IMG/VR virus record: IMGVR_UViG_3300045988_183796
DNA from: a virus
Length of the DNA: 64,000 bases
Direction: 5' to 3' (one strand)
The notes under the pieces were generated by a model, which was not told where the DNA came from, did not search any database, and was given only the letters and a program-made list of their open reading frames with translations. Below are positions 9,210 to 35,665 of this stretch, one piece after another (position 1 is the first letter of the stretch; each line of letters starts with the position of its first letter). The translations under genes were made by a program, and so were the position numbers.

Positions 9210-10487
9210 ATGACGAACGAACAAAAGCTTCTCGTATATCTCTATGGCGTTGATTCTATCCAGCACAAGCAGCTTGCCATTGCTCTCTCTGACATCCCAT
9301 ATCAATGCGTTACCAAAGCTCTGAGAGCGGCCAAAAAGCATGGGTATGTTGAGGTCTTTATGAGAGATGAATCGCGGTATGTGCGTATCTCTCCGGACGG
9401 TCTGAAATACATTCGAAGCACTCAAAAAGACGCTCTGGATGTAGACAAGCGGGCGGCTATGAAGCGGCGAATCAAAGGCGAACAAGGACGGCTCACCAGG
9501 GTGGAAACGACACTCTGCATGTGCCGAGCAGCGGGAATTCAGCCTGCCAAGGAAGCTGGTATCAAGTTAATCGATGTGCTTGACCCCGAGCAGGATGCGA
9601 CCCAAACTTTCATGAATGACTTCTTCTATGACAAAGGACTTCTTTTCCTGTCCGATGAAATCTCTGCAACTATCAAGACGAGCACCACAATGGGCGAGGA
9701 GTACACGCTCGGTCAAAGCCGTCTGGTAGGTATCGTAATCAACCGCACAGGCATTTCTTTTCTCTACTGTACGCTCGATAAACTGATGCGATGGGTTGTG
9801 TCTTACGAACAGCGGCGTGTAAGTGCAGTGATGGAACTCTTGAAATCCAGCTCACTTGCGGCAACTGACGAGGACTTCGCAACAATCTGCAATATGTCTC
9901 CTAAGTGCATCGTTATCGGCAAGACCTGCGCTATAGTTCCAAAAATCATTACTGGCGATAAGTATGGCAAAGCAATCGACAGCACTGATATTATCAAAAC
10001 CCATAACGCAACAAGGCTCTTGACGCTCACGAATCTCGAACAAGTCTACAAGTACAGCTATTTCGTTCCAACAAGTTCTATCGGCGTGGAACTTCTTGCT
10101 CGAACAGCAGCTTTAACACGAAACGAACTCAATGAAATGATTTCCGTGTGGCTGGATGAGATGGCTGAAAGCCATACAACCGTTACTACTGGGCGATATG
10201 TTGAAGCATACATCAATGAACAGAAATGCAAAACCATAACGCTGCCGGTCATTGAGTTTGAAGAACTCGAATATCAAAAAAACGGACGAGTGCCTTATCA
10301 TGTCGTTTGTGAGCGAGGAACGCAAGACGGTATCAGCCGGGCACTAGGAAGCAAAGTTCTCGATTTCAAGGATTTTGACAACATCCCAATGCCAGCACAT
10401 AAATACGACGACGACGGAATTCGCCGCGATGGGATTAACCCATTGACGCATAATGGATACAATGAAGAGGAGATGGATGACCAATGA
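9210..10487 (+). CDS. Hypothetical protein, possibly with an N-terminal wHTH
   Basis: RBS GGTGGTACT upstream. A perfect palindrome AAAGAGTAACATTT/AAATGTTACTCTTT lies upstream at about 9069-9121. Confidence 0.55.
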   Translation: MTNEQKLLVYLYGVDSIQHKQLAIALSDIPYQCVTKALRAAKKHGYVEVFMRDESRYVRISPDGLKYIRSTQKDALDVDKRAAMKRRIKGEQGRLTRVETTLCMCRAAGIQPAKEAGIKLIDVLDPEQDATQTFMNDFFYDKGLLFLSDEISATIKTSTTMGEEYTLGQSRLVGIVINRTGISFLYCTLDKLMRWVVSYEQRRVSAVMELLKSSSLAATDEDFATICNMSPKCIVIGKTCAIVPKIITGDKYGKAIDSTDIIKTHNATRLLTLTNLEQVYKYSYFVPTSSIGVELLARTAALTRNELNEMISVWLDEMAESHTTVTTGRYVEAYINEQKCKTITLPVIEFEELEYQKNGRVPYHVVCERGTQDGISRALGSKVLDFKDFDNIPMPAHKYDDDGIRRDGINPLTHNGYNEEEMDDQ

Positions 10488-12043: not shown

Positions 12044-12411
12044 AGTCAACAACCCCGCCCAAACCGGTTCACCGGTTATAGACGGGGCTTGCGGGGCAAC
12101 CCGTAAGCCCGGTTGATTAGCCTTGGTGAACGGCAACTTCGGTTGCTGCGAACTCCGTTATGCATTTGATGAGCAATCATCTTCATAATATAGGCACCCC
12201 GATATGCTCCACAAGTGTCGGGCTCTGCGGGCAGTGTATGTATCAATGGCGCAAGCCGTTGATATGTATTACGTTAAAAATCTCTAAGGGTAGGAGATGT
12301 GCGGCTGCCATGCCGAAAGGCTGAAACAGTGCATAACATTGGCGAAGTGGACCACAGGGCGCAAGCCCTGACTTATAGTTTCATTACTATTTAACGAAAG
12401 GAGTATCTTGC
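12044..12411 (+). ncRNA. IscB-associated omega-RNA (HEARO-like) scaffold, copy 1
   Basis: About 365 nt of stop-rich non-coding sequence ending exactly at the iscB ATG. Contains GNRA-capped stems (cagggc-gcaa-gccctg; gcttgcgggg-caa-cccgtaagc; accggttcaccggt). Its 5' and 3' blocks are shared with a second copy at 30880-31198, and the two copies show compensatory base changes. Confidence 0.6.
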
Positions 12412-13605
12412 ATGAGCACTTGCGTTTGTGTTCTCAGCAACAGTGGTGAACGCTTAATGCCTACCTTCCGTCTTGGCAAGGTACGCCGACTCTTGAAAGA
12501 CGGAAAAGCAAAAATCGTTAAGCACCATCCATTTACTATCCAGTTACTGTATGACAGTAAAACAAACACGCAGCCCATCGAAATCTGCGAGGATGTGGGC
12601 TACAACTACATCGGCATCAGTGTAAAAAGTCAATCTCACGAGTATGTATCTGCGCAGTATGATACATTACAGGATGAGAAAGCCTGCCACGACAGTTGTC
12701 GTAAGTTGCGCCGAACCCGCAGAAATAGACTGCGCTACCGTAAACCGCGCTTCGATAACCGCAAGCGCGGCGAAGGTTGGCTTGCTCCTTCTTTGAAGCA
12801 TAAGAAAGAACTCAATGTCAACGTTGTCAAGATGTATTGTGCAGTAATGCCCATTACTCATGCAACGGTTGAGGTTGGTTCTTTTGATACGATGCTTGTA
12901 AAAGCAATTCAGGAGGGAAAAGCCATTCCTGAGGGAGCAGACTACCAGAAAGGTCCCCGCTACAACTTGGCAACTTTGCGTGAGGCAGTGTTCTACCGTG
13001 ATAATTACACCTGCCAAGTTTGTGGACGCAAAATCGCGGATGGTGCCATTTTACATATGCACCACATGTTCTACTGGAAAGGAAGACACGGCTACCAGCT
13101 TGATGAGTTGGTTACAGCGTGTGAAAAATGCCACACGCCAGCAAATCATCAAAAAGGCGGCAAGCTCTTCGGTTTTGGCGAAGATAAAGAATTTGCCAAT
13201 CTTTCAGGTGCAGCGTTTATGAACGCTGTTTGCTGGCAGATAGTAGATGCACTGCACGCCACATACGGTAAGGAATTTGTGACCATCACTTATGGTGCGA
13301 TGACAAAGGAAAAGCGAATCATTCTTGGCATAGAGAAAACCCACAACAACGATGCGTATGCAATGGGAGATTATCATCCGGTACATCGTTGCGTGTTTAG
13401 GCATTACCAAAAACGACGCAGAAACAATCGTGTGCTGGAAAAATTCTACGATGCCACTTATATCGACACCCGCACCGGTAACAAAGCAAAAGGTAAAGAA
13501 CTATTTAACGGCAGAATTAGCCGTAATCACAAAAAGAATTCTGAAGACCTGCACAAGTACCGCAGCAAAAAGGTATCGAAGGGCCGTCGCTCTATAAGAA
13601 GGTAG
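12412..13605 (+). CDS. iscB: IscB (IS200/605 OMEGA RNA-guided HNH/RuvC nuclease)
   Basis: N-terminal PLMP-type motif (SGERLMPTFRLGKVRRLLKDGKAKIVKHHPFTIQL). RuvC-I EDVGYNYIGISV. Arg-rich bridge helix RKLRRTRRNRLRYRKPRFDNR. RuvC-II ATVEVGSFD. HNH YTCQVCGRK...HMHH...ACEKCH. RuvC-III THNNDAYAM. No TnpA nearby. Confidence 0.8.
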   Translation: MSTCVCVLSNSGERLMPTFRLGKVRRLLKDGKAKIVKHHPFTIQLLYDSKTNTQPIEICEDVGYNYIGISVKSQSHEYVSAQYDTLQDEKACHDSCRKLRRTRRNRLRYRKPRFDNRKRGEGWLAPSLKHKKELNVNVVKMYCAVMPITHATVEVGSFDTMLVKAIQEGKAIPEGADYQKGPRYNLATLREAVFYRDNYTCQVCGRKIADGAILHMHHMFYWKGRHGYQLDELVTACEKCHTPANHQKGGKLFGFGEDKEFANLSGAAFMNAVCWQIVDALHATYGKEFVTITYGAMTKEKRIILGIEKTHNNDAYAMGDYHPVHRCVFRHYQKRRRNNRVLEKFYDATYIDTRTGNKAKGKELFNGRISRNHKKNSEDLHKYRSKKVSKGRRSIRR

Positions 13606-23875: not shown

Positions 23876-24373
23876 ATTTTTTTGCGCGAAAGAATATCGG
23901 ATAAGTGACGCTTCCTACTCGTATGACCGAGAGAAAACATGCAAAGACTCTACCATTCTGGTAGGGCTTTTTTGCTGCCCAAAAAGTTGGAAAAATGTCG
24001 CAAGCGAGCCGCTGAAACCTCAGAATTTTGTCGCAGCCTTTCCGAATATGAGATGTATCTCACAAAAGCGAAATGCGCTGCTTCGTATCTGTGGTGAGAC
24101 AATCGGAACAGGCGAATAGCAAAATCTCAGCTGCCGCAAATGCTGTCAAGTTCAAATCACAACTCCCAAAAGTCTCGTTTGGGAAAGCCTGCATTAAAAG
24201 TTTCGTTCTGGGAAATGCAGAGGGGAAAGGAAAATGTCGAAGCATATATGCACTGATTTTCTTCTTGCTATTTGTGCAATCCGCTCAAATTGGCGATAAA
24301 TATTCCCAAAATAAATAAGTCAAAGTGCTTTTGGTGTATAATGGCTCTGACAAACAGAAAAAAGGAGAACACT

Positions 24374-25456
24374 ATGAAAAAGGTTGTATCATTAGCACTT
24401 TCGACTTTGCTCGTCCTCTCGTTGGCTGCCTGCGGCAAGGCGAATAGTTCCGCTGCAACAGCCGCAAGTGAATCCAAGTCAAGTGCTTCGTCAAATAGCA
24501 CTTCCAATAGCACGCAAGATTACAGCCCTGACGGGATTAAAGTAGGAGAGACATATACTACAGAAGACGGCAAAACATATGAAAGGGTGTGGAACGGCAC
24601 AGGCAGCGATTTACCTACGCCGTCCCCCGAACCCAAAATTACATACGATAATGATTTCCAGGCACAGACACTTGTTGATAATGAAGAATGCACCATTATC
24701 TTGCAGAGCGTCGGTTACGATGATGATTACGGCTATTATTGGAAGCTTTATTTCAAGAATAAGACATCAGATAAAAAACTCGGTTACTCGTTTGATGACT
24801 GCACATTGAATGGCGTGGGTGCGAGCCTTTGGCTTACGAGTGTTGAACCTGGTCAAGAGGAAACGGAGATTCATCATTGGGAAAGTTCCGGGCTTAAAAT
24901 TTATAACATCAATCCGCAGGATATCAATACGGTAAGTTTTTATCTCGATGTCTATAACGAATTAGATTATGATGTTATCCCACGGCATGACTTTGTTGAT
25001 GACGATTTCGTGGTTTATCCAAAAGGGGAAGAAAACGCAACCGAGCCAAAGCATGAAACCCAACCCACAGACCTCGTACTGGCCGACAATGACGCTTGCA
25101 CTCTGATGATTTGTGGATTTGACCCCGATGGCCTGCACGGTTATACGACCAAAGCTTACATAGAAAACAAAACAGATAAAGAAATCATGCTTGCCTTTAG
25201 AAGTGGAGGTTCCATAAATGGCTTTGAGTGCTTCCCTGAAACAGATACAATGGGAATTGATGCGCACACTAATGCCTATGTAGACATCTACTATTACGAT
25301 TATTTAGATACTTATGAGGCCAACGGTAAAGACCCCACCTCTATCACCGAAATGGTGATGCCAATCGTTATAAACAATTTCAATACTCGGGACATCTATG
25401 TAGATGAGACTTTCACTATTAACCCTCAGACAAATTCCGTGACAACATCGAAATAA
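24374..25456 (+). CDS. Lipoprotein, paralog 1 of a tandem pair
   Basis: MKKVVSLALSTLLVLSLAACG lipobox. Extended -10 TGTATAAT upstream. About 45% identity to the next gene. Confidence 0.7.
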   Translation: MKKVVSLALSTLLVLSLAACGKANSSAATAASESKSSASSNSTSNSTQDYSPDGIKVGETYTTEDGKTYERVWNGTGSDLPTPSPEPKITYDNDFQAQTLVDNEECTIILQSVGYDDDYGYYWKLYFKNKTSDKKLGYSFDDCTLNGVGASLWLTSVEPGQEETEIHHWESSGLKIYNINPQDINTVSFYLDVYNELDYDVIPRHDFVDDDFVVYPKGEENATEPKHETQPTDLVLADNDACTLMICGFDPDGLHGYTTKAYIENKTDKEIMLAFRSGGSINGFECFPETDTMGIDAHTNAYVDIYYYDYLDTYEANGKDPTSITEMVMPIVINNFNTRDIYVDETFTINPQTNSVTTSK

Positions 25457-25613
25457 TTTGACGCCCTCCTGCGATTAAAATTATTAACTTTCCCGGGCAT
25501 CGTTTGCGACTTTGTAAGTAAAGGTTTCGTTCTGGGAAAACACGGTGGAAAAGTAAAATGTCGAAGCGCTTTTGATGTATAATAGCCTTATACAAAGAAA
25601 AAAGGAGAAAATC

Positions 25614-26636
25614 ATGAAAAAGGTTGTATCATTAGCACTTTCGGCTTTGCTTGTACTTTCCCTGGCCGCCTGTAGCAGCTCTAACACTACCAGTACTGCT
25701 GCCAGCAGTGCAGCTACATCTGATGCTGCATCCTCCGAGGAAAGCACCAGCGACTCTTCAACGAGTACTGCAAGTAGTGCTGCCGATAATGCAACGGCTG
25801 AACCCGACATCCAGTTCGATGAGAGCTTCCAGCCACAGACGATTGCCGACAACGATACCTGTACCATCATCTTGCAGAACGTGGGTTATGATGACAGCTA
25901 TGGCTACTACTGGACCGTTGATTTCCAAAATAAAACGGATGACAAAACTCTTTGCGCTATCACAAGCAGCTCGTCCTTGAATGGAATCCCGGCAGATACC
26001 AGTTGGTTCCCGGAAATTGGACCAGGAGTGAAAACCACCGAGGTCGTTTCGTGGGATAAAGCAGGACTGGAAATCTATGGAGTGAAACCGCAAGACATCG
26101 ATACCGTCAAACTTCACATCGATGTCTATGATGAAGCAGAATGGGATGTGTCGAATCGTGATGACCCTGTCGATGATGACTTTGTGATTTATCCGAAAGG
26201 TGAAGAGAAAGCGACAGAACCAAAACACGAGATTCAGCCCACGGATATTGTGCTGTTCGACAATAATGCCTGCAGCATGGTCGTTTGCGGATTTTATTCT
26301 GATAGTTTCATGGGCTACACGGCAAAAGCCTACTATCAGAATAAGACAGATGACCGTATCGACATTATTCTGGATAAAGGCTCCATCAATGGCTTTGAGT
26401 GTACCCCGGGAGGAACAACATTGCTGGAACCACATTCTAATGCCTACGTGGATATCCGTTGGCAGGAATATGCCGAAACCTACGCAGAAAATGGCAATGA
26501 CCCAACATCCATCACAGAAATTGTAATGCCAGTTTTTGTGAGAAAAGACACAGGGAGCAATACGGTATACATTGACGCCACTTATTCCATTGACTCACAA
26601 GCAAGAACAGCAACGCCGATAGTGAATCCCCAATGA
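25614..26636 (+). CDS. Lipoprotein, paralog 2 of a tandem pair
   Basis: MKKVVSLALSALLVLSLAACS lipobox. Duplicated leader (tttcgttctgggaaa...aaaatgtcgaagc...tgtataat) as in paralog 1. Confidence 0.7.
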   Translation: MKKVVSLALSALLVLSLAACSSSNTTSTAASSAATSDAASSEESTSDSSTSTASSAADNATAEPDIQFDESFQPQTIADNDTCTIILQNVGYDDSYGYYWTVDFQNKTDDKTLCAITSSSSLNGIPADTSWFPEIGPGVKTTEVVSWDKAGLEIYGVKPQDIDTVKLHIDVYDEAEWDVSNRDDPVDDDFVIYPKGEEKATEPKHEIQPTDIVLFDNNACSMVVCGFYSDSFMGYTAKAYYQNKTDDRIDIILDKGSINGFECTPGGTTLLEPHSNAYVDIRWQEYAETYAENGNDPTSITEIVMPVFVRKDTGSNTVYIDATYSIDSQARTATPIVNPQ

Positions 26637-26746: not shown

Positions 26747-26780
26747 TTAAAGCGCTCACCATCTTCGGTGGGCGCTTTCG
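26747..26780. terminator. Bidirectional terminator between convergent genes
   Basis: agcgctcaccatcttcggtgggcgct with T-runs on both strands. Confidence 0.55.
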
Positions 26781-26783
26781 TGT

Positions 26784-28313
26784 TTATTCTTCAGTTTTCT
26801 TTTTCAGCCACTGCCTTCTAACGAACGGTGTTACATAGGTTTCATCACTCTTCAGCTCATAGCCATAGCTTTCAGCTATCATGGTAGCACGTTCACTCGC
26901 TTTCTGCCCGGCAGGCAGGCGACGAATAAAACCATTGATGTTCTTGGACGAAGCATCATACTTGGACTTGTCGAACACCCGCAGCGGCTCGTCGTCATCA
27001 TTGCCTTTCTTGCGATAATCGCGGGGCTTTCCGCCAATCATCAGACAACGAATCCTGAATGGAGCATCCGCGTGTGTCACAAACGAAGACCGGAACGACG
27101 CATCAGTGGGCAGGACATCCGGCAAATCACAGGCGAGAGAAGTGTACAGCCAGAGAATCAGATTCGTGACGCTGTCAACCAGCTCTGGAAATTGAGCTCG
27201 GTCAGTCAAAATATAAAACCACTCGGTGCTTGTGTTATAGTATCCGGCCAGGTCACCGAACTTGGTTACGATTTTATACAGACACACAATCTCGTTGTCG
27301 CGGCAAGTCTCTTTCAGCTTAATTTCCTGTATCAGCTGGCAGGCATCAAACTGAAACAATGCACCGTTGGCGGGAAGAGTTCTGCGGCGATGGTGCAGCG
27401 TATCTTTCAAAAACTCTGTCGTATATTTGGGTGAGATGGGCTTTGGCCACCAGGACCACATGTTCGGAGTATTCTCAATCAGCGGCTTGTCCGGCAGCAT
27501 GTCCACGGTATACTCGTTCACATAGGTAGCCATCGAAAGGACTGTGTTCGTATACAGATGTGAGAGCAAAGCGAGGTTGTTGATGCTGTCGAAGTCGGCA
27601 ACGTCCTCATAACCATAACGCTTGTAGTACGAAAAGACCATATCCAGACGTCTATCTTCAGAAATCTGAGAATCGCATTTGTCGTATGGCCGATTGTTGA
27701 AAAGAGCATCACTATAATAGACAGGAACATCGGCGAGGGGATAGGGGTCCCGAATAATGATTGGCTCGTTCTCAGTTGAGATACCGACAATGTTGTTCAC
27801 AATATCGAATTCCTGAGGCTTGAGGTATTCGCTCCCCTGCATCAGCATATCGATTACCGCGTACAAGACAGAATCATTACGTTCCACAATTCCGTCAATG
27901 GTCAAACCTAAATGAACGCATTCCTGCGCATAAGCAATAGCCTTAAAATACAGAGCATAGTCCTTATTCTTCTTGATGGGCTTTGTGAGCTCCTGCAAGA
28001 ACCGATGATATCCCTTGATGAATTTATCAGAGTTCGCCATGGCGAGCTCTATCTGAGAGTTAACGGCCTCAATAAGAGGTTTGCACTCCTCAGCTCCACG
28101 GGCCAGGTGAAAGAGGAAAGTAGATGCTTTCCCAAAATCCATGTCATGCAATGTCGTCGCAACCTGGCAAGCGCTGGACAGGGTTCTTCTCTGAAATACC
28201 CAGATAGACTCGCCTTTGCTCCGATACTTCTTATCCCATACCGGTACGTATTTATCGACTAGGGCATTACCGAAATCTTCCTGCACTGCCAAAACACCAT
28301 TTTCGTTCTGCAC
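26784..28313 (-). CDS. Large hypothetical protein (509 aa), downstream partner of the HD-domain gene
   Basis: Long ORF with coding-like composition and no motif I recognise. Lies 73 nt downstream of the HD gene on the same strand. Confidence 0.6.
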   Translation of the reverse strand: MQNENGVLAVQEDFGNALVDKYVPVWDKKYRSKGESIWVFQRRTLSSACQVATTLHDMDFGKASTFLFHLARGAEECKPLIEAVNSQIELAMANSDKFIKGYHRFLQELTKPIKKNKDYALYFKAIAYAQECVHLGLTIDGIVERNDSVLYAVIDMLMQGSEYLKPQEFDIVNNIVGISTENEPIIIRDPYPLADVPVYYSDALFNNRPYDKCDSQISEDRRLDMVFSYYKRYGYEDVADFDSINNLALLSHLYTNTVLSMATYVNEYTVDMLPDKPLIENTPNMWSWWPKPISPKYTTEFLKDTLHHRRRTLPANGALFQFDACQLIQEIKLKETCRDNEIVCLYKIVTKFGDLAGYYNTSTEWFYILTDRAQFPELVDSVTNLILWLYTSLACDLPDVLPTDASFRSSFVTHADAPFRIRCLMIGGKPRDYRKKGNDDDEPLRVFDKSKYDASSKNINGFIRRLPAGQKASERATMIAESYGYELKSDETYVTPFVRRQWLKKKTEE

Positions 28314-28386
28314 AGTATCCTCCTCATAGTTTCAGCTGCCCTACACAGCTCTGCGCAGTGGGCAGTAGTTTGTGGGCCATCTCGTT

Positions 28387-29721
28387 TCAAAAATACTTGG
28401 GGTCCACGGCCCGCATCCCGAACCGCACACGGTCCAGGGCATCTGCGTCTTTCAGAATCGTATACAGCAGCCACACCCGTTCTTTGTCCCGGATATTGGA
28501 TGCTTTGAGGTCTGCAAGAGCCTTGCGGTCATCCAAGCAATGATACTCGATGAGGAAAGCAGTTGCCGGATTGCAGTCGGAGTCTGCGTCATAATAAATG
28601 TCCCTGGACTTTGCTCCGTGACTGTCATCGACATCATCATTCGTCCGCCCAATATCATGATAAAGAATCGCATCACATAGCTGGTGGGATTCTTTTTTTG
28701 TTAAGGCAATGCCCTGAACCTGAACCAAAAGCAGCGCATCAAAGAGAACTCGCAGCGTATGCTCGGCGTCGTGCTCCTCGTCATCAATCCGGCCATAATC
28801 ATCGTACAGTGCGGAGATACGGCTCCGGTAGCACTGATAGAGCGAATAAAACGCTGGGATTTTGTCTGCCAGAGCGTCGATACCGTAAAGTGTATCAATC
28901 TTGACTTCATTTATAGCAGCTGGTGAAATGAGAACTTCTTTTTCTTCATCACGCGAAAAGTATTCGATGATATCACTTTTGTTGACGTGAGCAGTTATGA
29001 TTCTGCTGTTATCAACACTTGGAATACGACAGGCAAAGAAACAGGCTGCCTTGTAGCTTGTGGTCCAGGAGAAAGATTTCTCGTATGGAGTTGACTTACT
29101 CCCTTCCCCACGATAGATGGTCACAATATCCGGCAGGCTGGATAGCTTCTTTTCAGTGTCCTGCTTTTGCTTCTGAGACTTTCCAGAAAAGACTTTCTGA
29201 AGGTTATCCTCTTTGAGAGCCGAGAACCCAAAATCACTGGTACGATAGAAGTCCAGAAAAAGCGCGTATAGATTCTCACCCGGACTGGACAACTCAATGT
29301 ATTTAGAAAGAACCGATACACGCAGGCTGTCTTCCAGGGAAAAGAGGTAGCTGCGAATGAAGGGGGCGTTTCCCGATGAGATTTTCTCGGCCCTATCCAG
29401 AACTCTCTGCTGAAACTTTTCGTCCGATTCGCCGTTCACAGCCAAGCGTTTGTCTCCATAAATGTTCAGAGAAAGAACAATAGGAATTATCGGATTGTTA
29501 AGCTCACAATAATATAGCGATGCCAGCATATTGTGCGTAGCATAGATTCTGGCGACAGGAAGCCTCGGATACTTCTTAGCAAATTCGTTGGCCGTTATGC
29601 CGACACTGTAGCCTTCTTTGTAGTACCGTTCGATATCTGCGCTTGTTTTCACTGCTGTAAGGGGAAGCATCGTGTCGAGATTTGCTTGATTTATTTGTAT
29701 CAGGATATCTCCGATTGTCAT
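28387..29721 (-). CDS. HD-domain phosphohydrolase-like protein with an N-terminal domain of unknown function
   Basis: C-terminal H...HD...D motifs (EHTLRVLF, YHDIGR, LKDADALDRV). Start chosen at MTIGDI because the extended -10 TGGTATAAT lies inside the longer ORF. Confidence 0.65.
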   Translation of the reverse strand: MTIGDILIQINQANLDTMLPLTAVKTSADIERYYKEGYSVGITANEFAKKYPRLPVARIYATHNMLASLYYCELNNPIIPIVLSLNIYGDKRLAVNGESDEKFQQRVLDRAEKISSGNAPFIRSYLFSLEDSLRVSVLSKYIELSSPGENLYALFLDFYRTSDFGFSALKEDNLQKVFSGKSQKQKQDTEKKLSSLPDIVTIYRGEGSKSTPYEKSFSWTTSYKAACFFACRIPSVDNSRIITAHVNKSDIIEYFSRDEEKEVLISPAAINEVKIDTLYGIDALADKIPAFYSLYQCYRSRISALYDDYGRIDDEEHDAEHTLRVLFDALLLVQVQGIALTKKESHQLCDAILYHDIGRTNDDVDDSHGAKSRDIYYDADSDCNPATAFLIEYHCLDDRKALADLKASNIRDKERVWLLYTILKDADALDRVRFGMRAVDPKYF

Positions 29722-29892
29722 AATTCTTTTCTTTCTACATTTCTTTACAAATGCATTATACCATATTTTGGTGATTACAGGGCTAAATCGCAAAATCGTT
29801 CATGAATGCTTTACTTTTGCAATGTGTTGGCGTTAACGACCTGCGCGTCCAGATACGCAACACTTTCTAAGGGGTCGCGTGAGGCTCGAACG

Positions 29893-30300
29893 TCAGATTC
29901 TCATTAGAAGTTCTGTCGGAGTAAATGCGACTACTTTGCTTCTTGTGAAATCACGAACGTTTCTCGTAATAATATAATCGGCATGAATTTGTTCTGCAGT
30001 AGCACTTTGAACTGCATCTTCAAAATCCTTCCAGTTCATTTCAACAGCTTTTGAAAGAATAGAAGAACTGAAATCAGCAAATTCAAAAATCAAACACAGT
30101 TTGTGATATACTTCTTCGATTTTATCGGAAGTGAGTTCTTTTCGGAGAATATACATAATATTTGCGAAGGATAGCGTGGAAATATAGCCTTTTGCTTGCT
30201 CTGTTTCGCATAGCTTCCATATCATCGCGGATTCCTTCACAAAGTTTTCTCGGTTTTGCAATACATCCAATACGATGTTAGCGTCAATCAGTAAGGTCAT
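29893..30300 (-). CDS. PIN-domain toxin (VapC-like)
   Basis: MTLLIDANIVLD..., with acidic residues in PIN positions. Overlaps the antitoxin gene by 17 nt. Confidence 0.8.
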   Translation of the reverse strand: MTLLIDANIVLDVLQNRENFVKESAMIWKLCETEQAKGYISTLSFANIMYILRKELTSDKIEEVYHKLCLIFEFADFSSSILSKAVEMNWKDFEDAVQSATAEQIHADYIITRNVRDFTRSKVVAFTPTELLMRI

Positions 30301-30535
30301 ACTTTTCTCTCAGCCTTTCCTCTTTCACTTCGTCAAGGTTGTAATTTCCTTTAAGGATGCCGGTGAGGGAATCTGTGAGATAGGAAACGGCAGCATCTTT
30401 GGGAATGAAACGACCAACTTCACGGCCGTTTTTTGTTACGATTATTTCCTGACCAGACATAACGAGATTCAAGTATCTTCCAAAATTATTCTGCATTTCA
30501 GTTGCGGTTGCAGTAGCAGTAATCATAACTGACAC
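30284..30535 (-). CDS. Phd/YefM-family antitoxin
   Basis: About 83 aa with the typical Phd fold sequence (QNNFGRYLNLVMSGQEIIVTKNGREV). Confidence 0.8.
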   Translation of the reverse strand: MSVMITATATATEMQNNFGRYLNLVMSGQEIIVTKNGREVGRFIPKDAAVSYLTDSLTGILKGNYNLDEVKEERLREKYDLTD

Positions 30536-30539
30536 CTCC

Positions 30540-30585
30540 TTTTAGCTAATTATATTATACACAAAGTTAGCTAATTTTGCAACTT
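30540..30585 (-). promoter_or_regulatory. Toxin-antitoxin promoter with twin TTAGCTAA palindromic operators flanking the -10
   Basis: Reverse complement reads TTGCAA-N17-TATAAT. The palindromes TTAGCTAA lie at about 30542-30549 and 30567-30574. Confidence 0.6.
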
Positions 30586-30615
30586 GAAAATATTTGGAAC
30601 CAAGCAAATTTGCTC

Positions 30616-30810: not shown

Positions 30811-30879
30811 TAAAGACAAAGCGATTGTGAGATGGGGCGATACCGATGCAGTAGGGATGAGAATCTTAGCAGCTAAAAG

Positions 30880-31198
30880 AGTCAACAACCCCGCCTAAAC
30901 CGGTTCGCCGGTTATAGACGGGGCTTGCGGGGCAACCTGTAAGCCCAGTTGATTAGCCTAAGCCCATTGCTCCGGCAGTGGGGAAAACTACGTTGTGTAC
31001 TAATAATATAGGCACCTTATCCATGCTCCACAAGTGGTGAGCTCTGCAGGCGTTTCGTTAAACATCTCCGAGGGGAGGAGAAGTGCGAGCGTCATGTCGA
31101 AAGGCTAAAACAGTGCATAACATTGGCGAAGTGGACCACAGGACGCAAGTCCTGACTTATAGTTTTATTACTATTTTACGAATGGAGAAACAAAAATT
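30880..31198 (+). ncRNA. Omega-RNA/HEARO-like scaffold copy 2 (no iscB), abutting the flotillin start codon
   Basis: Shares the 5' ~75-nt and 3' ~95-nt blocks with copy 1. The middle is divergent. Shows compensatory base changes (caggac-gcaa-gtcctg versus cagggc-gcaa-gccctg). Confidence 0.5.
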
Positions 31199-32842
31199 AT
31201 GGTATATGTGATTGGAATTGTAGCAGCCCTGATTATTCTCTTTGGATTTCTCTGCTACAAGAAAGCTCCGCCCACGGAGGCTATCGTTGTAACTGGCTTT
31301 GGCCTGTCTAAGCCTAAAGTGGTTTGCGGAAAGGGTACATTTGTTCTGCCCGTTCTTCAACGGGCTGACCGACTGAATATGCGCCTTTTGAAAATCGATG
31401 TCAAGACTCCTGAAACAGGTGTTAAGACGAAGAACGGCGTAAGTCTCTGGATTGACTCTGTTGTCACGATTCAAGTCTACAGCGAAAACTCTACCGTTCT
31501 GGATGAAGAAGTGAAGGCATCCGGTCTGAAAGACGCCAAGGCGTACATCATGTCCCGCCAGCAGGCAGCCATCTCGAACTTTCTCGGCATGAACGAGCAG
31601 GGCATCAATGAGAAAGTTAATGACGTTCTGCAGGGCAATTTGCGTGAGATTGTCTCTGACATGACCGTTGACCAAATTCTGACGAACCGCAAGCAGATGG
31701 CTGTGAGCGTTATCGAGAATGCTCGCCCCGACCTTGCTAAGATGGGACTTGAGGTCGTGACTTTTAATGTCCAGGACATCAGGGATGCAGTGGATGTTCA
31801 AGGCCACAATCACGGCGTTATCGAAGCTATCGGCATCGAACAGGAAGAGCTCGTAAAGAAACAGGCTGAAATTGCCCGTGCTCAGGCTGCCCGTGATGTA
31901 GCCTGCGCGAAGGCCGATGCTGAGATGGCTGCAAATGCCAAAGAAGTTGAAGCGCAGACTGCGATTGCAAAACGCAACAATGAATTGCAGCTCGCCAAGG
32001 CAAAGCTGAAAGCTGAAGCTGATAAAGCTGCGGCTGACGCAGATGCTGCCGGTCAGATTCAGATGAATCTCCGCGCCAAAGAAATCAAAGAAGCGGAAGC
32101 GGATGCTGAAATTGCCAAGCAGAAGAAAATGGTAGACCTTGCCGCACAGGAAGCCGAGGTCCAACAACGCAAACTGGATGCGGAAGTCCGCAAACAGGCA
32201 GATGCTGACCTGTACCGCCGCCAGAAAGAGGCAGAAGCCAAGAAATATGAGGCGGAACGTGCAGCTGAGGCACAGAAGTTCTCCAAGCAGCAGGAAGCAG
32301 AAGGCATCGAGCTTGTCGGTAAGGCAGAAGCTGAAGCGATTCGTCAGAAAGGCTTGGCTGAAGCGGAAGCTATGAAACAGAAAGCAGAGGCATATAAGCA
32401 GTATAACGATGCGGCTGTGGCTGAAATGCTCATCAAGGTTCTTCCGGACATTGCCAAGAGCGTGGCTCAGCCTTTGTCCAGCATTGATAAGGTTTCTATC
32501 ATTGGCGGTGATGCCTCCGGCGTATCCGGCGTTTCCGGGAACGTTCCTATCCTGATGGCTCAAACCATGCAGACGGTGAAAGAAGCGACCGGCATTGACA
32601 TGGGCGAAATTGTCCGTGCCAACAGCATCCAGGCAAAGACAGACCGCAACATCAACATTATGACTCAATGTGAACAGCCTGAGAATAACAAAGAGAAAGG
32701 AGGTGCCAAGGCAATGGAACGCGTAGAAGGCGGCTATCTGATTCATGAGAAGAGTCTCAACGGTGAGGAAGTCACTCATTTTCGACCGGATGTGACCGAA
32801 GAAGAGAAGGCTATCATGAAAGACAAAAAAGCCAAAGATTAA
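31199..32842 (+). CDS. Flotillin-like SPFH/Band-7 protein
   Basis: N-terminal TM helix, then an SPFH domain (VVTGFGLSKPKVVCGKGTFVLPVLQRADRLNMR...) and a long EA/K-rich coiled-coil. The antisense 581-aa ORF was rejected. Confidence 0.8.
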   Translation: MVYVIGIVAALIILFGFLCYKKAPPTEAIVVTGFGLSKPKVVCGKGTFVLPVLQRADRLNMRLLKIDVKTPETGVKTKNGVSLWIDSVVTIQVYSENSTVLDEEVKASGLKDAKAYIMSRQQAAISNFLGMNEQGINEKVNDVLQGNLREIVSDMTVDQILTNRKQMAVSVIENARPDLAKMGLEVVTFNVQDIRDAVDVQGHNHGVIEAIGIEQEELVKKQAEIARAQAARDVACAKADAEMAANAKEVEAQTAIAKRNNELQLAKAKLKAEADKAAADADAAGQIQMNLRAKEIKEAEADAEIAKQKKMVDLAAQEAEVQQRKLDAEVRKQADADLYRRQKEAEAKKYEAERAAEAQKFSKQQEAEGIELVGKAEAEAIRQKGLAEAEAMKQKAEAYKQYNDAAVAEMLIKVLPDIAKSVAQPLSSIDKVSIIGGDASGVSGVSGNVPILMAQTMQTVKEATGIDMGEIVRANSIQAKTDRNINIMTQCEQPENNKEKGGAKAMERVEGGYLIHEKSLNGEEVTHFRPDVTEEEKAIMKDKKAKD

Positions 32843-32964
32843 AGACAACGAATAAAAAGAGGGTGACTCGAAAGAGCCATCCTTTTTTCTGTTGTGACGC
32901 AAACGAAAAGCTCATGGTAGCCATCCAATTAGGGTGACTGTCTTTTTTGCATGTTAAGGCTTTG

Positions 32965-32992
32965 TTGCTGAATTGTGCGAATTGAAGATAAT
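32965..32992 (+). promoter_or_regulatory. Regulon promoter
   Basis: TTGCTG-aattGTGCGAATtgaa-GATAAT. Upstream of gene 33047. Confidence 0.55.
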
Positions 32993-33046
32993 TAAAAACA
33001 AAAGATGCTTTGTATCAAATCGATTGAAACCGAAGAGGTGAAGTTA

Positions 33047-33850
33047 ATGCTCGGCGTGAGTTTGATTATCATAGCAGCGGCTATAGTCTACATGGTCGAA
33101 ACCTATATCAGCACCTATTACACTATCGAATACATGCACGGAACATCGCTGTTCCTTATCCTCCTTGCGAAATATGGCACGCCGGTCCTGTTCCTGCTGC
33201 TCTGCGCATACATTGCATATCGCAATTTTCTCAAAAAGCAGAAAGCTGCGGCTTCTGCTGCATCTGAACGGCCTGCAAGCAAAGAAGAGCTGTATACCAA
33301 CAAAATTCAAACGGCAGTAAAGACAAAAAGCGTCTTCTCAGAGCAGGCTGACCAAATGCTGTATCAGGTACGGCGCTTCGGGCAAAAAATGGCCGTTGCC
33401 TACAGCATGACCCAGGATAGCAAGACATCCGGGGAACAAGCCAAGTGCCTAACGTTATTGGAATCCGCAGAACGTATCTTCTATGACCGACTGGATGACG
33501 CGATTCGCTCGGCTTCAATGTTTGATGAAACGGAATACAAGGCTTTCTGTCAAGGCTCTATCTCGTTTGGAAACAAAGAAGAAGCGCAGAAAAAGAAAGA
33601 AATCTACAATGGTATCGTAAGTACCGTGGATAAGGTAGTTCATGACAATGAGCGCTTAATCCTCCGATTAGATTCTTTAGCATACGCTCTGAACCAACGT
33701 TCTGCCCAGAATCCATGGGATGCAGAGGTTGTCCTCGCAATGTCTAAGCTCGACGCTGTCATCAACAAGACGACGCAGGACATCGAGCAGGATGAAGTAA
33801 TCAGCCGCGAGGCTATGAAGCAATATGATATTTTGAAAGGAGAGTCTTAA
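33047..33850 (+). CDS. Membrane protein (two N-terminal TM helices plus a helical domain; TelA/XpaC-like guess)
   Basis: RBS GAAGAGGTGAAG. Two TM helices, then a coiled region. Confidence 0.5.
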   Translation: MLGVSLIIIAAAIVYMVETYISTYYTIEYMHGTSLFLILLAKYGTPVLFLLLCAYIAYRNFLKKQKAAASAASERPASKEELYTNKIQTAVKTKSVFSEQADQMLYQVRRFGQKMAVAYSMTQDSKTSGEQAKCLTLLESAERIFYDRLDDAIRSASMFDETEYKAFCQGSISFGNKEEAQKKKEIYNGIVSTVDKVVHDNERLILRLDSLAYALNQRSAQNPWDAEVVLAMSKLDAVINKTTQDIEQDEVISREAMKQYDILKGES

Positions 33851-33851
33851 C

Positions 33852-35546
33852 GTGACGAAGAAAAATATTTTCCCTGTAGTTGCAACCATCGCCGTGGTGG
33901 GTGTTGTTCTCGGCGTGTTTTCGACGACTGTGCTGCGCGACTCGAATGTCAGCATCAGCACGATGACTTCCGAGCAGGCGTATGCGGATTTAAGCGGAAA
34001 GATGAAACGTATCGGGGTGCAGGAAGTATCCGTCAATCCGCAACAGCTTGATGTATCGGAGTTTCTGGACGCAAAAGATGAGTTGCCGGATATCGACTCC
34101 TCCTACCCGTTTGTGGTGGAGGGAAACGGTGATGTCAACATTGAAATTTTCTCTTCCGGCGAGAAAGCAGCAGAATCCGGCTCCGATTCTTTCCTGACAA
34201 GCATGGCAAAGAAGTTCAACGCCCAGCACAACAAGACTTCCGGAGACAAGACTATGAGTGTCTCCCTGCGCTCCATTCCGTCCGGTACGGCGGCTGAGTA
34301 CATCTCGACGGGAAAGTATCAGCCCGAGTGCTATACCCCTTCAAATACGCTCTTTGGCGAGCTGGTGAAGAACGAGGGCGTAGAATTGACCGTTGAGGCT
34401 GACCGTCTGGTCGGCAATGTGGCGGGTATTCTCGTATCAAAGAAGACAGGGGATATGCTTCGCTCTGAATACGGTGAAGCGTCTGTTTCTTCCGTTCTGA
34501 ACGCAACCATCGATGGCAAACTCATGATGGGGTATTCCAACCCATATACCAGCGCAACTGGTCTTAACTTCCTGCTTGCTGCATTGGCAAGCAGCGGCAG
34601 CGATACGATTGTCGATACGGCTGCTGTTGAGAATTTCCAGAAATTTCAAGCGAACGTCCCTCTCGTATCCTTCACGACCCAGCAGATGGTCCAGTCGGCA
34701 GACAAGGGCATCGTGGACGGCGTTGTCATGGAGTATCAGTCTTATCAGAATGACCCGACCTTACAGCGCAACTACGAGTTCATCCCGTTCGGTGTGCGGC
34801 ATGATAACCCCCTGTATTCTATTGGAAGCATCTCGGCCGAAAAGAAGGAAGTTATTGCTGCGTTCGTTTCCCTCTGCGCCCAGAATCAGGCAGAAGCGAC
34901 GAAGGACGGGTTCAATGGTCTTGACGACTATGCTTATACAGGCAAGGCATACGACGGCAACACCATCGCACAGGCTCAGAGTGTCTGGAAAGAAGAGAAG
35001 GATTCCGGTATTCCTATTGTGGCAGAGTTCGTTGTCGATACTTCCGGCTCGATGCGCGGCGAACCCCTGAATGCCCTGAAAACCGCGATGATAAACACCA
35101 TCCAGTATATCAATGACGACAACTATATCGGCATCATTGGCTTTGATTCAGATGTCAGGGAATACCTGCCCATTGACCAGTTCTCTCTGACCCAGAAAAC
35201 TCTGTATAAGGGTGCCGTGAACTCCCTCGATGCGAACGGCAGCACCGCAATGTACAACGGTCTTTGCGTTGCTATGGACCGCATCTACCAGAAATCTCAG
35301 GAACTGGGTGGGAATTGCACGCCCATCATCTTTGTGCTCACGGACGGTGACAACAATACCGGATATGGCTTCTCCGATACGAAGAACATCATTGCCGGTA
35401 TGGATATCCCCATTTACACCATCAGCTACAACTACGCAGCGGATAGTCTTTCGGAGCTCGCTTCCATCAACGAAGCGGCAGCTATCGTTGGTAACAGCGA
35501 GGATATCACCTACAAGCTCCGCAACCTGTTTAACGCAGAGATGTAA
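33852..35546 (+). CDS. von Willebrand factor A domain protein with an N-terminal TM anchor
   Basis: C-terminal vWA/MIDAS motif VVDTSGSMRGEP ... TDGDNNTG. N-terminal TM helix. Starts 2 nt after the upstream stop. Confidence 0.7.
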   Translation: MTKKNIFPVVATIAVVGVVLGVFSTTVLRDSNVSISTMTSEQAYADLSGKMKRIGVQEVSVNPQQLDVSEFLDAKDELPDIDSSYPFVVEGNGDVNIEIFSSGEKAAESGSDSFLTSMAKKFNAQHNKTSGDKTMSVSLRSIPSGTAAEYISTGKYQPECYTPSNTLFGELVKNEGVELTVEADRLVGNVAGILVSKKTGDMLRSEYGEASVSSVLNATIDGKLMMGYSNPYTSATGLNFLLAALASSGSDTIVDTAAVENFQKFQANVPLVSFTTQQMVQSADKGIVDGVVMEYQSYQNDPTLQRNYEFIPFGVRHDNPLYSIGSISAEKKEVIAAFVSLCAQNQAEATKDGFNGLDDYAYTGKAYDGNTIAQAQSVWKEEKDSGIPIVAEFVVDTSGSMRGEPLNALKTAMINTIQYINDDNYIGIIGFDSDVREYLPIDQFSLTQKTLYKGAVNSLDANGSTAMYNGLCVAMDRIYQKSQELGGNCTPIIFVLTDGDNNTGYGFSDTKNIIAGMDIPIYTISYNYAADSLSELASINEAAAIVGNSEDITYKLRNLFNAEM

Positions 35547-35665
35547 CTCAAAAGCGCGGTTTTGTCCGCGCAGCTGCTCCAAAAGACAGCCTCCACGCGG
35601 CGAGCAGCGGGCAACGGGAGACAGTCCCGGCAAATTGTCTTTGAGACGGAAGGAAGAAGTGCCCT

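Follow-up and report, generated by a model that had tools for sequence, protein, structure and literature searches.

Organization of the A-B cassette

The 64,000-nucleotide (nt) DNA of IMG/VR virus record IMGVR_UViG_3300045988_183796, which we refer to as the window, contains two neighbouring minus-strand genes, here designated A and B. An initial annotation of this DNA had described them as an operon for an HD-domain protein with a novel N-terminal domain and a large unknown partner, and as a candidate defence module. Both genes were found where that annotation had placed them: the six-frame list of open reading frames (ORFs) holds a 468-amino acid (aa) ORF at 28387-29793 (minus strand) and a 509-aa ORF at 26784-28313 (minus strand). 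The cassette comprises the following features:

28387..29721, minus strand: gene A coding sequence as carried here, 444 codons and a premature TGA
26784..28313, minus strand: gene B coding sequence, 509 aa, GTG start
29755..29763, minus strand: extended -10 element TGGTATAAT, putative promoter of gene A
28319..28325, minus strand: GAGGAGG ribosome-binding site (RBS) of gene B, overlapping the ancestral gene A stop
26749..26778, both strands: bidirectional intrinsic terminator hairpin, 12-bp stem with T-runs on each side

Translation of gene A most likely starts at the ATG at 29721 and not at the mechanically assigned TTG at 29793, since the TTG precedes the -10 element and P0001, the cluster representative with 100% identity, starts at the ATG. 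The extended -10 promoter that had been predicted for gene A is present, but at 29763-29755, about 20 nt from the 29730-29740 originally given; its -35 region is weak, and a consensus promoter scan therefore did not list TGGTATAAT. Same-species relatives without the Phd-PIN gene pair next to the cassette still share the conserved sequence up to position 29818. The GTG of gene B (28313) is positioned 5 nt downstream of the GAGGAGG motif. The G+C-rich terminator hairpin, likewise predicted before, has seven G-C pairs in its stem and T-runs on both strands and terminates the A-B transcript as well as the convergent lipoprotein gene.

Homologues of both A and B number in the hundreds. The ratio of nonsynonymous to synonymous divergence (dN/dS) was 0.12 for gene A (11 relatives) and 0.09 for gene B (10-11 same-species relatives), with values of 0.04-0.13 for flanking genes in the same comparison, indicating that A and B are genuine coding genes under purifying selection. 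General decay of the cassette was ruled out by dN/dS values of about 0.1, although individual truncated alleles do exist. Across contigs of the same species, in which the flanks are 91-97% identical, the cassette occupies one fixed spot between lipoprotein genes and a flotillin-VWA operon. The cassette itself diverges faster: in a clade whose A proteins are about 59% identical to that of the window, DNA identity is about 84% in the flanking VWA genes and about 64% in A-B, and within the species synonymous divergence (dS) is 0.43 for gene A and 0.05-0.25 for its neighbours. This points to old or exchanged alleles. A and B thus form a co-oriented two-gene cassette that has a promoter of its own and occupies a hotspot of high variability on the chromosome.

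A premature stop in gene A creates the gap between A and B

The 73-nt gap reported between the two genes exists in the window but is not the ancestral layout. It arises from the following segment:

28324..28389, minus strand: premature TGA (28387-28389), 20 conserved codons and the family stop (28324-28326)

The TGA replaces the Arg445 codon of the relatives, inferred from their protein sequence to be CGA. P0001 matches the protein A of the window over 444 aa and then continues for 21 residues; correspondingly, read-through translation gives DPKYF, the premature stop, NEMAHKLLPTAQSCVGQLKL and the family stop. The CGA-to-TGA nonsense allele thus removes 21 conserved residues. This tail is kept in all full-length relatives, with R445, P454 and A456 invariant, and forms the terminal helix (450-462) in an AlphaFold model of full-length gene A (pLDDT 90.5). 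The family stop overlaps the RBS of gene B, and in the relatives L012 and L013 a 10-nt spacer separates the end of gene A (11398) from the start of gene B (11409). By this arrangement, A and B are translationally coupled in the relatives, and the 73-nt gap is secondary, a product of mutation.

The exact 444-aa A protein occurs on 11 contigs and is thus a circulating allele and not a read error; the exact B protein occurs on 13. A sister allele, P0321, is represented on 46 contigs and is the commonest member of the 90% cluster; it starts at Met17, so that the first 17 residues are absent, and carries the substitution R204H in a conserved YRG motif. P0331 is a further allele. Together, the nonsense allele and P0321 suggest recurrent attenuation of gene A within one species, and the allele in the window, which lacks the last conserved helix, may be attenuated.

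Gene A encodes a three-part protein with an HD domain

The part of gene A upstream of the HD domain, previously described as one novel N-terminal domain, consists of two modules: an N-domain without relatives and an ART-like (ADP-ribosyltransferase-like) middle module. The parts of gene A are:

29152..29721, minus strand: N-terminal domain, aa 1-190, a small beta region and a helical bundle
28867..29139, minus strand: middle domain, aa 195-285, candidate minimal R-S-E ART-like module
29107-29115, minus strand: Y203-R204-G205 of the middle domain, YRG motif
29065-29070, minus strand: S218-W219 of the middle domain, SW[TS] motif
28936-28944, minus strand: E260/E262 of the middle domain, ExE motif
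28390..28824, minus strand: HD phosphohydrolase/phosphodiesterase domain, aa 300-444 here and about 300-465 in the full-length form

The HD domain is canonical and of the metal type. It has the all-helical HD fold, and its ligands in the window protein are H321(TLRV), H355-D356(IGR), H394 and A-D427-A-L-D430, motifs that are invariant or at least 90% conserved across the family. Pfam HD (PF01966) scored 17.5 bits with the window protein, below the gathering cut-off of 22, but passed in relatives (P0106, 30.1 bits; P0120, 29.8 bits) and reached E≤0.01 in 40 of 95 family members, with a best value of 6e-12. Pfam HD-CE and, once, SidE_PDE also match the HD domains of the family; a literature search on HD-CE returned nothing relevant. 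The nearest solved structures are Legionella SidE-type phosphodiesterases (PDEs), marginally above generic HD hydrolases. The earlier assignment as an HD enzyme with a large unknown partner is confirmed as far as the HD domain is concerned, but missed a probable second catalytic module in A.

Most of the N-domain was modelled with pLDDT >87. It had no sequence match in Pfam, NCBIfam or the Protein Data Bank (PDB); PDB matches of full-length families at residues 135-190 were to maltose-binding protein fusion tags and were judged spurious. In HD-less 251-aa plasmid proteins the N-domain is kept together with the middle domain.

The middle module is probably an ADP-ribosyltransferase-like domain

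The middle module was analysed on the AlphaFold model and a family alignment of 22 sequences. It spans about 90 aa, with a modelled order of β(YRG)-β(SWT)-α-β-β-loop-β(ExE)-β. R204 is at the end of strand 199-206; strand 218-220 begins with S218 and leads into helix 223-230, and E262 is the first residue of strand 262-265, after a loop. The placement of R204, S218 and E260-x-E262 is that of R-S-E enzymes, in which the Arg is on β1, the Ser on β2 with a following helix and (Q/E)xE on a later strand. When the domain as encoded in the window served as the query of an exhaustive phmmer search, the module was identified in 895 representatives of clusters at 50% identity. Among 148 of these representatives the mean column identity was 21%, while Y203, R204, G205, S210, S218, W219, A226, F229, A230, E260 and E262 were at least 90% conserved. 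The module also matched PHROG 4776 (E 4e-14) and PHROG 25265, both unnamed; no named ART was found for it in the viral fold library.

The best PDB-wide profile matches, none of them significant, included those to the toxin TreX (E 0.54-0.57), which is an ART (PMC11606950), and to 2kxi (E 1.4). In TreX (140 aa), YRGD and STT…SFATK align with YRG and SWT…FFA.R of the middle module. The 2kxi structure, which is NarE, was likewise aligned on the S-T-T/helix/FA segment around the Ser motif. FRG was the sole Pfam family touched by the module, faintly and in three of seven domain sequences (E 0.08-0.2), over the SWT…A..FA segment; it has been placed in the ART superfamily and predicted to be an antiviral effector (PMC9503650). 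The motif layout on the predicted strands, together with the TreX/2kxi and FRG matches, leads us to regard the middle module, with moderate confidence, as a minimal R-S-E ART-like domain.

Among characterized proteins, the small R-S-E ART toxins (TreX/Tre1-type effectors of type VI secretion systems, NarE/CT-like and C3/VIP2/iota-type toxins) have the same motif order as gene A: an aromatic-R-G motif, S-[WT]-T with a helix ending in F-A-x-R, and E-x-E-[VI]-[LI] about 44 residues after the Ser. Its 'SWT…A..FFA.R..(I/V)(I/V)' and 'E-K-E-V-L-I…' segments and the S-to-E spacing of about 44 residues resemble C3/VIP2/iota-type toxins in particular. Unlike these toxins, gene A has no secretion or delivery domain and is fused to HD instead of a translocation or Rhs module. 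Frg (PF08867) shares with the middle module an (F/Y)RG motif at the N-terminus and a conflict-system context, but the match covers about 20 residues far below threshold, and spacing and length differ. ARTs of phages and conjugative elements (T4 Alt/ModA/ModB and polyvalent-protein ARTs) are carried by mobile elements and evolve fast, and short A homologues occur in early-type regions of phages and establishment-like regions of plasmids; such ARTs are thought to act early on host targets (PMC9503650). Gene A differs from them in that it gives no sequence match and stands alone, not fused to a MuF, portal or giant polyvalent protein; in the literature searched, an HD fusion was not described for these families.

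Architectures of the gene A family

Four architectures occurred among the fetched loci and the 895 representatives:

N-domain, middle and HD: dominant architecture
Middle and HD with another N-terminus: Syntrophomonadaceae
N' and middle without HD, about 230-300 aa: plasmids and phages
HD alone, about 190 aa, 30-39% identical: Bacilli, Bacteroidales and Akkermansia

The N-domain and the middle module thus represent the evolutionary core of gene A, and HD is an optional C-terminal add-on. Gene A is a three-part enzyme, one part of it probably ART-like, from a large Firmicute family found on plasmids, phages and genomic islands. Fusions of gene A to FtsH (AAA and peptidase M41) or radical-SAM sequences (P0107-P0110) were discarded as probably chimeric metagenome assemblies, since the gene A part comprises the first approximately 330 residues and breaks inside HD at a shared 'LLLVEMDG'-like string.

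These distributions bear on a simpler explanation, in which gene A is a plain HD phosphohydrolase, the YRG/SW/ExE module a non-catalytic binding domain, and A and B neighbours by chance. Curated libraries recognise just the HD part, standalone HD relatives are widespread and the ART assignment is below significance. However, a near-invariant Arg, Ser and Glu over about 900 clusters at about 20% mean column identity look catalytic, and the middle module persists without HD in many proteins of mobile elements. We consider this explanation improbable.

A and B are occasional partners

Co-occurrence of A and B was assessed by tblastn and hidden Markov model (HMM) searches on 215 fetched loci. Many of these loci are near-duplicates, so that the following counts of A/B adjacency do not represent independent samples:

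A at least 84% identical to the window, 13 loci: B adjacent in 13 of 13
A about 59% identical, about 29 loci: 8 with B intact and adjacent, 11 with a C-terminal B remnant of 46-77 aa, about 8 without detectable B and 2 with B at a distance of 5.4 kb
A at most 54% identical, about 50 loci: B absent throughout

In the two loci with B 5.4 kb away, helix-turn-helix (HTH), NERD and other genes lie between A and B. Conversely, none of 17 distant B loci contained a full gene A. Conserved co-occurrence, as expected for an obligate two-gene or toxin-antitoxin system, was therefore not found, and the obligate partnership implied by the proposed defence module did not hold up. Where the two genes are adjacent, an overlapping stop and RBS is maintained from 59% to 100% identity. 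A and B are occasional partners that adjoin each other only in two related clades, the one at 84% identity or above and part of the one at about 59%.

The layout of A and B resembles that of an ART toxin with an antidote. Small ART toxins often have a translationally coupled immunity gene directly downstream, and loss-of-function-like A alleles recur (the nonsense mutation at codon 445, and R204H with 17 residues missing). However, gene A retains all motifs in at least 17 loci in which B is a 46-77-aa remnant or undetectable, indicating that B is not an antidote. Moreover, B is 5.4 kb away in other loci, A homologues at or below 54% identity all lack B, distant B homologues lack A, and B is with 509 aa well above the typical size of an antitoxin. 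A toxin-antitoxin or toxin-immunity function of the pair is largely refuted by the co-occurrence data and is highly improbable.

A mostly unlinked A and B would also fit adjacency by chance. The persistence of the stop/RBS overlap argues against it, as does one distant locus, L011, in which a 31%-identical B is followed 17 nt on by an HD-less 233-aa protein that ends in the middle module (TIYRG…LSWT…ENEVVL; middle-module HMM, E 2e-13). This second, very divergent adjacency of B and middle module is a hint, from a single case, that B and the ART-like module are truly linked.

Gene B is a likely accessory protein

Gene B is divided into two recognizable parts:

27819..28295, minus strand: N-terminal all-helical domain, aa 7-165, weakly sensor-globin/RsbR-N-like
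26787..27416, minus strand: C-terminal alpha/beta half, aa about 300-509

Homologues of B fall into 46-51 clusters with identities down to 28%, none of which has a Pfam domain or a name. Conserved motifs are RRRTLPANG, NEYT.D.LP, GGK and INGFIRRLP.GQKASE…ETYV.PF, and all but NEYT.D.LP were assigned to the C-terminal half, for which comparison with the PDB yielded no match or structural relative. The N-terminus is weakly similar to sensor globins and to the RsbR-N/pXO2-61 non-heme globin sensor domains. B is unrelated to A, and we infer that it is a facultative accessory, a sensor or regulator, and not an antidote. A model in which B is a constant sensor and the effector encoded upstream varies, suggested by PIN7, a Zeta-like kinase and an unknown protein of 404 aa in L005, L010 and L011, was rejected, since other B loci have an integrase, an adhesin or unknown small ORFs upstream. 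The 404-aa partner in L005 is unrelated to gene A.

The view that the pair matches no described family was borne out: searches of Pfam, NCBIfam and PDB gave no match beyond the weak HD hit, and PHROG matches were unnamed. Neither protein matched a housekeeping pathway, and a scan with PADLOC-DB v2 gave no system model, A having only a spurious match to Cas7_IIId (E 0.011) and B none.

Genomic setting of the cassette and its relatives

The window is rich in conflict-type genes: IscB, NYN, RHS-repeat, YpsA/SLOG and PLD/NgoFVII-like nuclease genes, a toxin-antitoxin pair and a solo HEARO element. The setting proposed for a defence module was thus confirmed in this respect, but its location on a mobile element was not: no integrase, relaxase or type IV secretion system (T4SS) genes were present among the annotated window ORFs near the cassette, and no mobile-element backbone is visible around it in this window.

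The toxin-antitoxin genes next to A were identified as before: a PIN gene at 29893-30300 (minus strand; PIN_3, E 9e-21) and a Phd/YefM antitoxin gene at 30284-30535 (minus strand; PhdYeFM, E 1e-6, just under the gathering score). They had been taken as part of the evidence for a module around A-B. However, the pair (about 29819-30603) is absent from L094-L101, L124 and L151, which retain A-B and both flanks, and adjoins A-B in the relatives L012 and L013 only. Phd-PIN is an indel that most same-species relatives lack and not part of the A-B unit. Some loci of the ~59% clade carry copies of the pair, 88-91% identical in protein sequence, at a distance of about 6 kb from A. On the far side of B, L012 has a HipA-like gene, a metallophosphatase gene and TnpB in place of the two lipoprotein paralogues of the window.

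Relatives of gene A adjoin McrBC, TnpB, AcrVA2-like, RloB/AAA_15, NERD, HipA-like and Fic genes. At A loci of 54% identity or less, neighbours include Fic, DUF4942, PIN7, HD_4, NADAR and NrdD. On the phage-like contig L218, a 52%-identical A homologue is directly followed by a RelA/SpoT-type HD_4 hydrolase; genes for a NADAR (ADP-ribose-processing) protein and an anaerobic ribonucleotide reductase are found at a distance of about 7 kb (coordinates 783-1241 and 9477-10247). HD-less homologues are located directly after ssb, beside sortase and pilin genes, on a 136-kb Bacillus subtilis plasmid, near DUF262, DUF4942 and recombinase genes on plasmids of Clostridium botulinum, and in a Spounavirinae phage in the midst of small ORFs of the early type. 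Genes for establishment or anti-defence would be expected in such places (PMC8708921, PMC11541004). B homologues of 28-40% identity stand alone in integrative and conjugative elements (ICEs), with neighbours such as a Tn916-type integrase; a TQ/SpaA/thioester adhesin and topoisomerase III; a T4SS pilin and sortase; and LPD1, a VirB11-like ATPase and a resolvase. A PHROG scan of a locus of the ~39% clade yielded a transposase and a cell-wall hydrolase-like protein and no clear prophage.

Such locations are consistent with gene A and, independently, gene B being early cargo of plasmids, ICEs or phages that modifies and disables host defence or host machinery, as T4 Alt/ModA/ModB or polyvalent-protein ARTs do, with the chromosomal copy stranded or domesticated. 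The chemistry could be the same as in a defence enzyme; only the beneficiary differs. The short N'-middle homologues after ssb, near conjugation genes and among phage early-type ORFs point in this direction and make counter-defence as viable an option as defence; further support comes from full-length relatives next to DUF4942 and PIN7 or on a phage-like contig with NrdD, NADAR and HD_4, and B homologues as cargo beside a Tn916-type integrase, TQ/SpaA adhesin, topoisomerase III, T4SS pilin and LPD1. In Gram-positive conjugative plasmids the genes for establishment vary strongly, and most lack a known function (PMC8708921, PMC11541004); among the modifying enzymes of injected polyvalent proteins, ARTs are the most frequent (PMC9503650). 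On the other hand, the window and at least 10 contigs of the same species have the cassette at one fixed chromosomal position, and integrase, relaxase and T4SS genes are missing from its surroundings; its promoter is of the constitutive type and both genes are under purifying selection there. Mobile elements also carry defence systems, so that location does not discriminate. We give the cargo explanation a fairly low probability, slightly below that of defence for the copy in the window; across the whole family, counter-defence or a part in establishment comes close to defence in likelihood.

A tandem ART-like-HD enzyme as the proposed function

Our best explanation, offered tentatively, is that gene A encodes a tandem ART-like-HD conflict enzyme with B as an accessory, with a slight lean towards defence; a role of A as a weapon in conflicts between bacteria and mobile elements is plausible. 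The ART-like site would move ADP-ribose from NAD+ onto a target macromolecule. The HD site would next cut the pyrophosphate of the ADP-ribose, so that AMP is released and a phosphoribosyl mark is left which ordinary ADP-ribosyl hydrolases could not remove. The N-domain may pick the target or hold the enzyme latent, and B may add a facultative sensor or regulator function. The chromosomal copy would serve in defence against phages or incoming elements; this is favoured only slightly over counter-defence, on the basis of the constitutive-type promoter and the hotspot rich in conflict genes.

The SidE family, comprising the phosphoribosyl-ubiquitin ligases SdeA, SidE and SdeC with a mono-ADP-ribosyltransferase (mART) and a PDE and the PDE-only SdeD/DupA-type proteins, is among the closest to gene A and sets a precedent for mART followed by PDE chemistry (PMC10143409). 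Its PDE works by a catalytic His-His-Glu triad and a covalent His intermediate (PMC10143409). For gene A, hydrolysis would be expected and not this covalent chemistry, since its HD domain retains the metal ligands. The ART-like module of about 90 aa has no helical lobe and no detectable sequence homology to the SidE mART, and the hosts are gut Firmicutes and mobile elements, which excludes ubiquitin as the substrate, unlike in SidE. As its architecture also differs from that of SidE, the gene A product is not a member of that family and is an analogue at most. It shows no significant match by which it could be placed in an ART family either. By analogy, gene A would work most like a SidE-style ART-PDE tandem or like a Frg/ART-type conflict effector joined to HD. 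Descriptions of anti-phage systems with ART and PDE or ART and HD, or of such ART-HD or ART-PDE fusions, were not found in the literature. A more far-reaching version, which we consider quite unlikely, is that the family of about 900 clusters, as yet unrecognised enzymes of Firmicute mobile elements, reinvents the logic of SidE outside Legionella. Its minimal ART module would ADP-ribosylate a protein or nucleic acid, and HD would trim the adduct to a phosphoribosyl mark or use it for ligation, so that in conflicts of phages or plasmids with their hosts the modification resists macrodomain, ARH or NADAR erasers; B would be a globin-like ligand sensor in one lineage.

Several observations weigh against a tandem ART-like-HD enzyme with a defence role. 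Pfam ART models gave no match in nine domain-only scans and 95 diverse full-length members, and no significant sequence or profile link connected the middle module to any ART family (best PDB E about 0.5). The R-to-S spacing is 14 residues, about 30 fewer than in C3/iota-type ARTs, and an NAD-binding element may be missing. SidE is organized as deubiquitinase-PDE-mART-C-terminal domain, whereas gene A has the reversed order of N-domain, ART-like module and HD and lacks the deubiquitinase and the C-terminal domain, and its HD keeps the canonical set of metal-ligand motifs in place of the H-H-E triad. Generic HD hydrolases (Ppx, 12.2; 2pq7, 11.5) score close to the SidE PDEs. A common substrate of both sites is our assumption. 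Conjugative-type plasmids have HD-less homologues behind ssb and phages have them in early-type regions, PADLOC gave no match, and with a truncated allele in the window and R204H in its common sister allele the copy here may be non-functional.

The same domains would also allow gene A to act as an NAD+-depletion effector, with the ART-like module as an NAD+ glycohydrolase, HD degrading ADP-ribose or a nucleotide, and B or the N-domain sensing infection. Phages have NAD+-reconstitution pathways, and the degradation by HD would keep these from recycling the product. The HD fold is nearest to SidE PDE, Ppx/GppA and HD-GYP, enzymes for pyrophosphate and diester bonds of the ADP-ribose type or of nucleotides, NADAR and HD_4 genes are located near one relative, and the context resembles a defence island. 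The faint relation to FRG, a predicted NADase effector (PMC9503650), fits as well. However, an ART/NADase fold of the middle module is equally unproven under this explanation, and no coupling of sensor and effector is evident, B being dispensable and A tolerated alone. We consider NAD+ depletion to be of low probability and retain the tandem ART-like-HD enzyme as the preferred explanation.

Other features of the window

The conserved operon on one side of the cassette (31199-35546, plus strand) encodes a flotillin (Band_7/Flot, 547 aa), an unannotated 281-aa protein and a 564-aa VWA protein. An HDV-like ribozyme (RF02682, 'HDV-F-prausnitzii', 60 bits; 35573-35642, plus strand) begins 27 nt past the stop of the VWA gene (33852-35546); its family hints at a Faecalibacterium-like gut Clostridium as the host. 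On the other side, two lipoprotein paralogues are arranged in tandem (24272-25456 and 25572-26636, plus strand). Both have a signal peptide, a Cys lipobox and a linker rich in Ser and Ala. Their copy number and sequence differ between relatives (64-70% cross-matches), which makes this the variable far boundary of the cassette.

A solo HEARO/ωRNA-type RNA (RF02033, 91 bits) without an adjacent IscB gene is located at 30879-31182 (plus strand; Rfam match 30881-31141), next to the flotillin gene, which starts at 31199. This 304-bp element is present or absent among same-species contigs, with 10 bp left in L094, L099, L100, L101 and L151, and copies of about 72% identity occur elsewhere in L096, L100 and L124. 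From this pattern, the solo HEARO behaves as a mobile, non-autonomous ωRNA element. An IscB-type gene 17 kb away (12412-13605, plus strand; RRXRR PF14239, E 3e-45, and HNH), with its own HEARO-like RNA at 12045-12357 (59 bits, below the Rfam gathering score), could be its autonomous relative.

Significance

Should the ART assignment fail, the locus would still represent a cleanly bounded, fast-diverging cassette at a defined hotspot that is useful for studying island turnover. Gene B is of interest in its own right as a large protein with a fold without a solved relative that is typical cargo of conjugative elements. If the middle module works as an ART, gene A belongs to an enzyme family without any annotation that is widespread in Firmicutes of gut and soil and in the plasmids, ICEs and phages of these hosts, and about 900 clusters of hypothetical proteins would receive a name. 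The combination of NAD+-dependent modification and a phosphodiesterase in one polypeptide, so far a curiosity of the Legionella SidE effectors, would then represent a new type of effector in the NAD+/ADP-ribose arms race, possibly one that leaves an 'eraser-proof' phosphoribosyl mark.

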